From Escherichia coli (GTDB lineage: Bacteria > Pseudomonadota > Gammaproteobacteria > Enterobacterales > Enterobacteriaceae): a stretch of DNA of 64,000 nt. This document shows, piece after piece, positions 14,821-17,105 of this stretch (its first letter is position 1; the number at the start of each line of letters is the position of its first letter). The notes below the pieces were generated by a model, which was not told where the DNA came from, did no database searches, and worked only from the letters and a program-made list of their open reading frames with translations. A program made the position numbers and the translations under genes. The stretch lies in NCBI RefSeq assembly GCF_002854065.1, contig NZ_CP024147.1; one strand, 5' to 3'.

Positions 14821-14860
14821 ACGTCGCATCTGGTCAGATGCGACGCTTACCGCATCCGAC
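14821..14860. repeat. REP-like palindromic element between convergent thiI and yajL
   Basis: GTCGCATCTG / CAGATGCGAC inverted repeat followed by GCTTACCGCATCCGAC, resembling REP consensus. Confidence 0.45.
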
Positions 14861-14861
14861 A

Positions 14862-15452
14862 CTACTCGTAATAATTATAAATCCCTGCCGCCATCACCAG
14901 TTGTGATGCCACTTCATGGGCTTTCTCGCGCCCAACCAACAGGTCGATAATTTTCAGACCAAAGTCGATAGCTGTACCCGGCCCCTGGCTGGTCAGCAAT
15001 TTTACCCGTGCATCCCAGACGACGCGTTTGTCCTGCCATTGTTCGGCGGGAATTTTGTCTTTCAGCGTTGGGAAGCCGGTCATATTGCCAATCGGGAAGA
15101 TATCGTGCGGCACCAGCACGGTGGCTGGCGCGGCGCAAATAGCCGCGACGATACGCCCGGAACGGTGGAACTGTTTAACGGTTTCAACCAGCAGGGTGCT
15201 ATCGCGAAAACACTCCGCGCCTTTAATGCCACCAGGCAGCACGATCACGTCATATTCGCCATCAGCCACTTCGACCAGCGGCGCATCCGCCAGCAGCTTA
15301 ACGCCGCGCGAGCAGGTAATCGCCAGGTTGCCATCGCTGGCTACGCTGGCAGTGGTGACTTTGATACCGCCGCGAACCAAGAGGTCGATCGTGGTGACGG
15401 CTTCAGTCTCTTCACTACCAGGGGCGAGGCAAACCAGTGCCGATGCGCTCAT
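14862..15452 (-). CDS. yajL: DJ-1/PfpI family protein deglycase YajL
   Basis: ORF 14862..15458 begins with GTG; ATG at 15452 gives 196 aa [15 protein letters not shown]... Confidence 0.9.
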
Positions 15453-16326
15453 ATTCACTCTCCTTTCTTTTTACCATTTCAAACAGGCGGGTGTTTTCCG
15501 GTACGGCAATCCCATGCGCGCGGGCGCGGCGTAAGAGAAAACCATTGATATAGTCGATTTCGGTGTGGCGCAGCGCGCGGATATCCTGCAACATCGACGA
15601 GATATTTTCCGCTGTGGCATCAATCACCTGCATCACGTAATCACGTAAATCTTCCGCTGAAGTATGATGCCCTTCGCGTTCGATCACTGCCGCGACTTCT
15701 TCGCATATTTGCGTAATTTCTTGCGGATGATGACGTAATTCACCGTTCGGGCAATTCCAGATGGCAGTCAGTGGATTAATCACACAGTTGACTGCCAGCT
15801 TGCGCCACAGCTCGGCGCGAATATTGTTATGCCAGGCAACGTCAGGCAACACGGTTTGCAAAATATCCGCCAGATAACTGTAATCGCCGTCCTGTTGCCG
15901 TGCTGGACCAATATGCGTGATACCGTTTGCCACATGAATAATGACATTGCCGTCGCGGCGGGCGGCATGGGTGGTGGTGCCCATCAGTAATGGCTGCTGA
16001 ATGTTTTGCAATTCTTCGATGGTGCCCATGCCGTTGTGAATTAACAGTATTGGCGTAGTTACAGGCAGTGTGGACGCGAGGCTTTTGACGGCATCGGAAA
16101 CCTGCCATGCTTTCAGCGTCACCAGGAGCAGATCGCTGGTGGCAAGAAAATCGGGATCGTTGGCGGTCAGCGATTCGTTAAATATCGAACCATCAGTCTC
16201 AACCAGATTCACACTACAATAAGGTTGCGGTACGCGCAGCCAGCCCTGAACTTCGTGACCCTGTTTACAAAGTGCTGTAAGCCATAATTGCCCTAAGGCA
16301 CCGCATCCCAATACGGTAATTTTCAT
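15415..16326 (-). CDS. panE: 2-dehydropantoate 2-reductase
   Basis: 303 aa, N-terminal Rossmann GCGALG motif, GAGGAGG RBS upstream. Confidence 0.93.
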
Positions 16327-16493
16327 TGTTCCTCCTCACCCGCAACCACTCCGGGTGTTCAATAAGGCTATCCCTTAATTGTGCATGCTGTTGCGACTAT
16401 GCACAATTAAGGGATACGTCCTGGTGCAGGACTGTTGGTTATTTAACTTTGCAGGTATTATGCTTCGCATCAAAAATGAAGGGAGAGGAAAAG

Positions 16494-16985
16494 ATGCCAT
16501 CTTTCGATATTGTCTCTGAAGTTGATCTTCAGGAAGCACGTAACGCGGTCGATAACGCGAGCCGCGAAGTGGAGTCCCGTTTTGACTTCCGTAACGTTGA
16601 AGCCTCATTTGAGCTGAACGACGCCAGCAAAACCATCAAAGTGTTGAGCGAGTCCGACTTCCAGGTCAATCAGTTGCTGGATATTCTGCGTGCCAAGCTG
16701 CTGAAGCGCGGCATTGAAGGCAGTTCACTGGATGTACCGGAAAATATCGTTCATAGCGGTAAAACCTGGTTTGTGGAAGCGAAACTGAAACAGGGCATTG
16801 AGAGCGCCACTCAGAAAAAAATCGTCAAGATGATCAAAGACAGCAAACTGAAAGTGCAGGCGCAAATTCAGGGCGATGAGATCCGCGTGACTGGCAAATC
16901 TCGTGATGATTTGCAGGCTGTCATGGCGATGGTGCGCGGTGGCGATCTGGGTCAGCCGTTCCAGTTCAAAAACTTCCGCGATTAA
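16494..16985 (+). CDS. yajQ: Nucleotide-binding protein YajQ
   Basis: ORF 16326..16985 trimmed to ATG 16494 ([22 protein letters not shown]...), 163 aa. Confidence 0.9.
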
Positions 16986-16989
16986 TCGC

Positions 16990-17105
16990 GACAACCTGCG
17001 CTTTGTTCATGTCAGATGCGGCATGAACGCTTGGTTCGGCCTACAAAGGTTTGTAAATCAGGAGCTTAGTAGGCCTGATAAGCGTAGCGCAGCAGGCAAT
17101 TTCGC
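16990..17105. repeat. REP/BIME-like element between convergent yajQ and yajR
   Basis: Contains GATGCGGCATGAACGC...CGGCCTAC and inverted GTAGGCCTGATAAGCGTAGCGC REP-type sequences. Confidence 0.5.

Follow-up and report, generated by a model that had tools for sequence, protein, structure and literature searches.

The window, a 64,000-nt stretch of the Escherichia coli chromosome, contains two pairs of convergent genes, thiI/yajL and yajQ/yajR. The thiI gene (+ strand) ends at 14808 and yajL (- strand) at 14862, leaving a spacer of 53 nt (14809-14861); yajQ (+ strand) ends at 16985 and yajR (- strand) at 17113, with a spacer of 127 nt (16986-17112). The gene names and the convergent arrangement given in an earlier note on this DNA are right, and the strings it quoted as resembling repetitive extragenic palindromes (REPs) are all present: GATGCGACGC at 14837-14846, GCCTGATAAGCG at 17073-17084 and CGGCCTAC at 17037-17044. 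Descriptions of REPs and BIMEs go back to the 1980s. The features of the two junctions are the following:

14822-14845, no strand: inverted repeat CGTCGCATCTG / CAGATGCGACG of 11 bp, 100% complementary, the arms 2 nt apart
14833-14860, no strand: alternative imperfect palindrome GTCAGATGCG / CGCATCCGAC, 10 bp with an 8-nt loop, 90% complementary
14862-14865, + strand: tetranucleotide CTAC, 1 nt away from the foot of the alternative palindrome
17010-17044, - strand: degenerate y-type REP, 7/35 edits from the y consensus (28/35 identical)
17045-17068, no strand: linker AAAGGTTTGTAAATCAGGAGCTTA, 24 nt between the two REP tails (CTAC...GTAG)
17069-17098, + strand: near-perfect z1-type REP GTAGGCCTGATAAGCGTAGCGCAGCAGGCA, GTAG foot at 17069-17072
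17093-17133, no strand: 9-bp inverted repeat CAGGCAATT / AATTGCCTG, 100% complementary

REP units were sought by the full-length edit distance to the y, z1 and z2 consensus sequences, with 50 dinucleotide shuffles of the window as the background (best shuffle match, 0.24), since short degenerate REP patterns with three mismatches allowed produced pure noise (5 matches found against 5.9 expected, and 92 against 69). Places per genome were counted for the two yajQ/yajR units in 5,425 E. coli genomes, and the copy search for the thiI/yajL element covered a 28-Gb database with sensitivity down to near-perfect matches of roughly 19-20 nt. The defining REP features used, GTAG and the stem mismatch, are those described by Ton-Hoang et al. 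2012 (PMC3333891). Further matches of the consensus scan at 24501 (chance level), at 28104 (a chance match inside yajG) and at 52733 (inside insB of IS1) were rejected as chance. Rfam returned no meaningful match over 14600-17300, and the RepRanger supplements, searched for these junction genes, returned none.

At the yajQ/yajR junction, the formal consensus scan that the earlier note had named as a check recovers two REP units. The z1 unit is one edit away from its consensus (17069-17097, 1/29 edits, 28/29 identical), and both this match and that of the y unit beat the best match in all 50 shuffles. On the + strand the y unit reads TGTCAGATGCGGCATGAACGCTTGGTTCGGCCTAC, that is, in the iREP orientation with the CTAC end at 17041-17044, so that the GTAG-first REP lies on the - strand. 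The z1 unit has the conserved two-base stem mismatch, AA opposite GC, plus an extra A x G mismatch, and the exact string CTTATCMGGCCTAC occurs in the window only within this unit, as found by a motif scan. Sequences of the z1 type recur at 40 or more places per E. coli genome, and none of the matches listed coincides with an annotated feature; for the y unit the median is 25 extragenic places. In six diverse E. coli strains the 127-nt spacer recurs with an unchanged architecture, and in K-12 the linker segment carries further substitutions. The K-12 counterpart of the pair is presumably REP40, which would lie within K-12 445175-445301. On consensus similarity and copy number, the segment 17010-17098 is classified here as a genuine BIME, composed of a decayed y unit and a well-kept z1 unit in inverse orientation, tail to tail, and is read as a member of the dispersed E. 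coli REP family fixed at this site across the species.

The BIME class of this pair is less regular. In the nomenclature of Gilson, Bachellier and Hofnung, E. coli y and z1 REPs are paired as BIMEs, with which the yajQ/yajR element shares the GTAG/CTAC feet, the inverse pairing around a linker, the extragenic location between convergent genes and the presence of tens of copies per genome; it differs in that its y unit retains little pairing of its own and its linker is neither L nor part of a tandem y/z2 array. The combination of y and z1, the single copy and the tail-to-tail geometry are traits of BIME-1 (Ton-Hoang et al. 2012, PMC3333891), and an identity as BIME-1 (a RIP/RIB element), with IHF recruited via the linker, would also accommodate the one IHF-like match in the linker, at 17056-17068, which departs from the consensus at one base (AATCAGGAGCTTA against WATCAANNNNTTR). 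However, a one-mismatch match to a loose IHF consensus is weak evidence, the IHF-like match is not kept in K-12 or other strains, and the linker of 24 nt is shorter than the about 35 nt expected and unrelated to two genuine L linkers (its global alignments with them score -3 to -9, whereas the two L linkers aligned with each other score 25). The BIME-1 or RIP elements of K-12 (REP37 and the element at 5565-5669, the latter a textbook BIME visible in the sequence) are likewise single-copy, tail-to-tail pairs at convergent junctions, but contain the conserved 35-nt L linker (GTTAWTTC.GCAATATATTGAAT...) that is absent from the yajQ/yajR element. BIME-1 with IHF was rejected on the L-linker alignment and is considered highly improbable, and neither a z2 unit nor tandem repetition, the marks of BIME-2, was found in the element. 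Judged by its linker, which is unrelated to the IHF-binding L motif, and by its unit composition, the pair is not BIME-1 or BIME-2 in the strict sense, and it fits only loosely into the "atypical" BIME class, which is described as multi-copy.

The single REP units of yajQ/yajR fold poorly (z of -0.6 to -1.7), the y unit having lost most of the pairing of its own, decayed hairpin (z -0.6), whereas the entire BIME reaches -51.7 and -43.3 kcal/mol (z of -3.8 and -2.8) via REP-REP pairing. In the shared 3' untranslated region of the two convergent genes, where the BIME is predicted to sit, the two units would pair with each other into one long RNA structure that would probably block 3'-to-5' exonucleases and may impede read-through. 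The element has no U-tract and is thus not a classic intrinsic terminator, and a role of the BIME in termination lacks support, as the junction is absent from the K-12 bidirectional-terminator table of Harris et al. 2026 (bioRxiv 10.64898/2026.03.23.713779). The same study reports no genome-wide half-life effect of terminal REPs. The distance between the end of the z1 unit and the stop codon of yajR (17113-17115) is ~15 nt. REPs are reported to affect translation only within 15 nt of a stop codon. In single-stranded DNA, only the z1 unit would keep the features needed by the REP-associated transposase (GTAG and the stem mismatch). As a separate observation, the 9-bp inverted repeat at 17093-17133 flanks the yajR stop codon on both sides, overlaps with the z1 REP head and is 11 bp long in K-12.

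The thiI/yajL element is built differently, from three arms, each of which resembles a REP head (GATGCGRCG). The main hairpin (14822-14845), predicted to be formed by arms 1 and 2 as a perfect, GC-rich stem of 11 bp, begins 13 nt past the thiI stop codon (14806-14808) and folds at -16.3 kcal/mol on the + strand (z -4.0) and -18.8 on the - strand (z -6.8). The alternative palindrome at 14833-14860, which arms 2 and 3 together with the displaced CTAC would form, has its left arm in common with the 11-bp hairpin, includes a single A x C mismatch and folds at -12.9 kcal/mol on the + strand and -16.7 on the - strand (z of -3.6 and -3.8). The first three bases of the CTAC complement the yajL stop codon TAG (14862-14864), and Escherichia albertii has ATTA in its place. 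The stem is invariant among the present strain, K-12 and UPEC 536; the four substitutions that separate the K-12 junction from the present one fall in the flanks and spacer. E. albertii retains the hairpin but has an altered loop, and in other Enterobacterales another strong hairpin occupies this junction.

None of the y, z1 and z2 consensus sequences matched at thiI/yajL, where the best alignments require 9/29 or 11/35 edits (31%). The element is single-copy: its median count per genome is 2 places, exactly as for a palindrome known to be unique. It also lacks the two-base stem mismatch, since arms 1 and 2 are 100% complementary and the GATGCG/CGCATC of arms 2 and 3 is fully paired; removal of this mismatch has been reported to abolish TnpA_REP binding and cleavage (Ton-Hoang et al. 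2012, PMC3333891). Judged by the refuting outcome that the earlier note had named, no match to the REP consensus in a formal search, its claim that REP-type palindromes lie at both junctions holds for the multi-copy REP pair at yajQ/yajR and fails at thiI/yajL, where the palindromes are real but belong to a single-copy sequence that does not match the consensus. Similarity of the thiI/yajL element to REPs is not negligible: the 11-mer GATGCGACGCT is common to it and the z2 consensus, only ~2% of random 62-nt segments of the window match a REP consensus as well, and the K-12 counterpart bears a REP label. In addition, the 10-mer GTCAGATGCG is common to this element and the y-type unit, where it lies at 17011. 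A further copy of GTCAGATGCG at 26156, inside the end of ampG, is not REP-like and was discarded.

According to a table in the supplement to Harris et al. 2026, K-12 positions 443004-443039 constitute a bidirectional terminator that was observed in both log and stationary phase and overlaps EcoCyc REP39 by 20 nt; its 5' flank contains 0 A and its 3' flank 2 U. This overlap would place the start of REP39 near position 14831 of the window, and the palindrome at 14833-14860 with its CTAC is inferred to be REP39. The comparison with K-12 that the earlier note had suggested thus yields an annotated REP at the thiI/yajL junction, though a non-canonical one. The thiI/yajL element is the ortholog of REP39 and of the K-12 terminator, from which it differs in nothing of substance, and REP39 of K-12 is itself a non-canonical REP. 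By analogy with K-12, where the role has been mapped and the stem is identical, the hairpin would act here as a bidirectional terminator defining the 3' ends of both thiI and yajL. In the present strain it is almost devoid of a U-tract (CUUACC on the + strand, UUACAA on the - strand), so that termination would not follow the textbook intrinsic mechanism; no intrinsic-terminator-like site was called at the hairpins of either junction.

The overall reading, with a probability of about 0.85, is that yajQ/yajR carries one BIME with a non-L linker and that thiI/yajL carries a single-copy, three-arm, REP-like bidirectional terminator. The description as a terminator hairpin suits the thiI/yajL element better than membership in the REP family, of which it is at most a decayed or collapsed, non-canonical derivative. 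That both junctions are genuine, functional REPs, the one at thiI/yajL being recognised by REP-binding proteins, is unlikely: the REP39 label, the REP-head motif in all three arms, the CTAC near the palindrome foot and the location agree with it (~60% of REPs lie between convergent genes according to Harris et al. 2026), but the thiI/yajL element shows neither the consensus similarity nor the high copy number of REPs, nor the mismatch on which TnpA_REP depends. Conversely, the thiI/yajL hairpins might be unrelated to REPs and represent a locus-specific, GC-rich bidirectional terminator, its likeness to REP heads being due to chance or convergence. This explanation, which is possible though rather doubtful, draws on the single copy, on the lack of any consensus match at 30% edits or fewer, on the missing stem mismatch and a displaced CTAC that is accounted for by the yajL stop codon, and on the occurrence of a strong hairpin at this junction in every short-spacer Enterobacterales genome examined, with unrelated sequence in distant genera. 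It is weakened by the 11-mer shared with the z2 consensus and the edit distance in the 2% tail, by the 10-mer shared with the y-type unit and by the REP39 label; moreover, a simple terminator hardly explains three arms of one motif, and at yajQ/yajR Citrobacter has a similar REP-head palindrome exactly where a sister species has a full BIME.

Under the preferred reading, both junction elements are already known and ordinary, and the earlier note was right to call them ordinary for E. coli. The finding matters little: some 30% of the convergent junctions in E. coli hold a REP or BIME (Harris et al. 2026), and the thiI/yajL element has a K-12 annotation and an ortholog there with a mapped role as bidirectional terminator. 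The statement that these are the only extragenic repeats besides IS1 is correct for consensus-grade REPs only, since the window contains two further palindromes: between fadM and queC (38904-38934), the hairpin that is REP41 in K-12, and between amtB and tesB (~48355-48394), a terminator that overlaps K-12 REP42 by 22 nt. K-12 REP37 (yajD/tsx, K-12 430969-431066) is absent from the present strain, and the REP38 junction has an inserted open reading frame. REP content varies between strains even within this one window. The fadM/queC hairpin belongs to a kind of short GCCGGAT...ATCCGGC "REPs" of K-12 (REP11, REP21, REP41 and REP49), near-perfect palindromes with REP-head-like halves and no GTAG, which lie at convergent junctions and coincide with bidirectional terminators and mapped overlapping 3' ends. 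The thiI/yajL element is likewise near-perfectly palindromic, and differs from them in having three arms instead of two and the variant GTCAGATGCG instead of GCCGGATGCG. A caution for annotation is that K-12 "REP" labels mix true multi-copy REPs, with GTAG and the stem mismatch, with single-copy, REP-like terminator hairpins.

It may tentatively be proposed, as a conjecture that is possible but less likely than not, that perfect palindromes of REP heads, namely those of thiI/yajL and fadM/queC and those found at yajQ/yajR in Citrobacter sp. FP75 and Cu233, are collapsed BIMEs. The inner tails and the linker of a tail-to-tail REP pair would have been deleted, and the two outer heads would remain as a perfect hairpin retained as a bidirectional terminator. 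The main support for the collapse comes from Citrobacter youngae, which has its own BIME at the yajQ/yajR site, the outer arms of which (TGCCTGATGGCG ... CGCCATCCGGCA) are orthologous to the simple-hairpin arms of its congeners (TGTCAGATGGCG ... CGCCATCTGACA). The opposite direction, in which REP tails were inserted into a pre-existing hairpin, may also apply. If true, the collapse would provide a general route from a selfish repeat to a host terminator, and would explain the presence in the K-12 annotation of many GTAG-less "REPs" that coincide with mapped bidirectional terminators. In Enterobacter, Pluralibacter and more distant genera, the yajQ/yajR spacers are 30-50 nt long and hold plain, A/T-flanked terminators.

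Across the complete Escherichia coli genomes, the segment 14700-17200 is matched in 5,424 of 5,426 at 95-100% identity. The genes annotated under the match are thiI, yajL, panE, yajQ and yajR, in the same order as in K-12, and this order is conserved across Enterobacterales. An earlier note had assigned repetitive extragenic palindromes (REPs), or their inversely oriented pairs (BIMEs), to two convergent junctions in this segment; the strings it quoted are found at 14837-14846, 17073-17084 and 17037-17044, and the gene ends confirm the convergent arrangement of both junctions:

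14806-14808, plus strand, thiI stop codon (TAA)
14862-14864, minus strand, yajL stop codon (TAG)
16983-16985, plus strand, yajQ stop codon
17113-17115, minus strand, yajR stop codon

The yajQ/yajR junction (16986-17112) holds a genuine REP pair. Both strands of the whole window were scanned by edit distance against the y, z1 and z2 consensus sequences, with 50 dinucleotide shuffles as the control. The right unit (17069-17097) differs from the z1 consensus by 1 edit in 29 and the left unit (17010-17044) from the y consensus by 7 in 35, the best match among the shuffles being at 24% edits, so that the REP/BIME assignment holds here under a formal consensus scan. The 14-nt tail motif CTTATCMGGCCTAC has its single exact occurrence in the window at this junction. 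Searched alone against the 5,426 genomes, the right unit is found in at least 40 places per genome and the left unit in a median of 25; among the matches listed, none has an annotated feature beneath it. The layout, CTAC, 24 nt and GTAG, is the tail-to-tail arrangement of a textbook K-12 BIME. REPs are defined as imperfect palindromes of 30-40 nt with GTAG at the foot and a two-base mismatch in the stem (Ton-Hoang et al. 2012, PMC3333891). The z1 unit retains all three features; the y unit retains CTAC and sequence similarity, and its own hairpin has decayed (fold z -0.6). Pairing between the two units lets the element as a whole fold well (-51.7 and -43.3 kcal/mol; z -3.8 and -2.8).

The class of this BIME was also considered. 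Despite the y + z1 composition, BIME-1 is excluded by the 24-nt linker, which fails to align with either of two genuine L linkers (-3 to -9, where L against L scores 25), and BIME-2 by the absence of both a z2 unit and tandem repetition. An IHF-consensus match with one mismatch lies in the linker (17056-17068) and is not retained in K-12 or the other strains compared. Separately, the yajR stop codon is flanked by the arms of a 9-bp perfect inverted repeat (17093-17101 / 17125-17133; 11 bp in K-12), which overlaps the z1 head and might form in yajR mRNA at the expense of the REP hairpin.

Six diverse E. coli strains share the 127-nt spacer and its architecture, and the BIME sequence is unusually divergent, with 90-95% identity in most E. 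coli genomes. In about 140 genomes the match ends at the end of yajQ and the yajR side is missing; in the one examined, E. coli MS 57-2 (L005), yajQ is followed by a plain terminator, a GC hairpin with a T-tract, and by a tetratricopeptide-repeat gene, with no BIME. In Enterobacter, Pluralibacter and more distant genera the spacers are 30-50 nt long and carry plain A/T-flanked terminators. Four Citrobacter loci (L082, L021, L045 and L092) were compared:

Citrobacter youngae, a full BIME of its own
C. werkmanii, a partial BIME
Citrobacter sp. FP75 and Cu233, a simple perfect hairpin of only the two outer REP heads

The outer heads of the C. youngae BIME have their orthologues in the hairpin arms of FP75 and Cu233, and these variants suggest that BIMEs and simple terminator-like palindromes interconvert.

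The thiI/yajL element (14809-14861) is of another kind. Three arms resembling the REP head GCCKGATGCGRCG, oriented minus, plus and minus in turn, make up two alternative, strongly folding hairpins (z -3.6 to -6.8):

14822-14832 / 14835-14845, arms 1 and 2, 11 bp, 100% complementary
14833-14842 / 14851-14860, arms 2 and 3, 10 bp, 90% complementary

The window scan gave no match here to the y, z1 or z2 consensus at up to 30% edits; the best match stands at 31%, a level that about 2% of 62-nt segments drawn at random from the window also reach. GATGCG and CGCATC are perfectly complementary, so the stem lacks the diagnostic mismatch, and the CTAC close by stands 1 nt away from the foot, overlapping the yajL stop codon as read in complement. 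The element is found in a median of 2 places per genome, the value obtained for a unique palindrome (16369-16416; exactly 2, one per strand), and is therefore single-copy. Judged from sequence, the resemblance to REPs is nevertheless not negligible, with an 11-mer shared with the z2 consensus and a 10-mer with the yajQ/yajR y unit.

The copy of the K-12 record NC_000913.3 that was consulted shows no repeat features at all and is uninformative on REPs. In a table of their supplement, Harris et al. 2026 (bioRxiv 10.64898/2026.03.23.713779) list 306 bidirectional terminators that lie between convergent genes of K-12 and give the EcoCyc REPs these overlap. Entry 31 of this table (K-12 443004-443039; stem ACGUCGCAUCU, 4-nt loop, -17.4 kcal/mol; log and stationary phase; affected genes yajL:panE:thiI) is the first thiI/yajL hairpin, at about 14815-14850. 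Entry 31 overlaps REP39 by 20 nt, from which we infer that REP39 is the second, imperfect palindrome. The same table equates the fadM/queC hairpin with REP41 and pgpA/yajO with REP38, and has the amtB/tesB terminator overlapping REP42; a second table in the file places REP37 between yajD and tsx. The yajQ/yajR junction has no entry among the 306 terminators, and from the numbering its BIME should be REP40. The earlier reading stands for yajQ/yajR; at thiI/yajL, where the consensus test failed, it survives only in the loose sense of the K-12 annotation. The feature at both junctions is ordinary, as had been noted for E. coli, and already described.

The thiI/yajL stem is identical in the source strain, K-12 and UPEC 536; isolate SC418 has a single stem substitution adjoining the loop, and in E. 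albertii the hairpin is retained but its loop differs. Other Enterobacterales have different strong hairpins or kilobase-size insertions. Insertions of 0.5 to 5.8 kb were seen in Citrobacter sp. Cu233, Pluralibacter, an Enterobacter MAG, Edwardsiella ictaluri and Morganella (L092, L064, L055, L097 and L062), and the junction appears to be a recurrent insertion site across genera.

In K-12 the thiI/yajL hairpin was mapped to the overlapping 3' ends of both convergent transcripts, and it would mark them in the source strain too; textbook intrinsic termination is unlikely because there is almost no U-tract. REPs within 15 nt of a stop codon are reported, at second hand, to lower translation, and the main stem, 13-14 nt from both stop codons, would fall inside this range. 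The yajQ/yajR BIME would form a structure in the 3' UTR common to both genes, one that stops exonucleases and perhaps also restricts read-through, the dual role that Harris et al. 2026 propose for REPs between convergent genes; the same source reports finding no genome-wide effect of REPs on half-life.

The junctions had been said to carry the only extragenic repeats besides IS1. The yajQ/yajR pair is indeed the sole consensus-grade REP in the 64-kb window, and no long intra-window repeats were found there, but the REP41 sequence and the REP42-overlapping amtB/tesB terminator are also present. The former, the fadM/queC hairpin (38904-38934; TGCCGGATGC-tcaa-GCCGCATCCGGCA; z -7.4), consists of two y-type heads without GTAG, is a mapped bidirectional terminator in K-12 (Harris et al. 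2026) and belongs to the same type as the thiI/yajL element. Within IS1 insB (ORF 52466-52969), the coding sequence TATGGCGACGCTGGGGCGTCTTATGAGCCTGC (52698-52733) resembles the z2 core (7/36 edits, better than any shuffle), probably by coincidence.

The divergent panE/yajQ spacer contains a perfect 18-bp inverted repeat, TATCCCTTAATTGTGCAT (16369-16386) and ATGCACAATTAAGGGATA (16399-16416), separated by 12 nt. Its folding energy is -30 kcal/mol (z -5.0 and -6.7), and after it comes a small hairpin whose tail is rich in T (16418-16432). The palindrome is single-copy, and in 5,344 of 5,424 E. coli genomes its identity is 99% or more, a conservation far above that of the yajQ/yajR BIME. It is identical in E. 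albertii, imperfect in Citrobacter and absent from Enterobacter and others, in which the spacer is shorter by about 50 nt; Rfam gave no match to the palindrome.

Several intergenic regions differ from K-12. Between yajD and tsx, the 176-nt spacer of K-12 holds a full BIME-1, REP37 (z1, a 35-nt L linker and y), together with a terminator, and the 37-nt spacer of the source strain (1081-1117) holds the terminator alone, a clean presence/absence polymorphism of a BIME. Between pgpA and yajO (7094-9096), where K-12 has only a 53-nt spacer with REP38, the source strain carries an ORF for a 531-aa pentapeptide-repeat protein (7271-8866, minus strand), with no REP detected in the flanking spacers. 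An accessory segment between yajR and cyoE (18484-20896) is absent from K-12:

18824-19819, plus strand, Sel1-repeat protein
19875-20417, minus strand, GNAT acetyltransferase
20401-20778, minus strand, TacA-like antitoxin

The latter two look like a TacAT-type toxin-antitoxin pair; the strain with the 100%-identical match carries a truncated TPR gene and IS1 in place of this segment.
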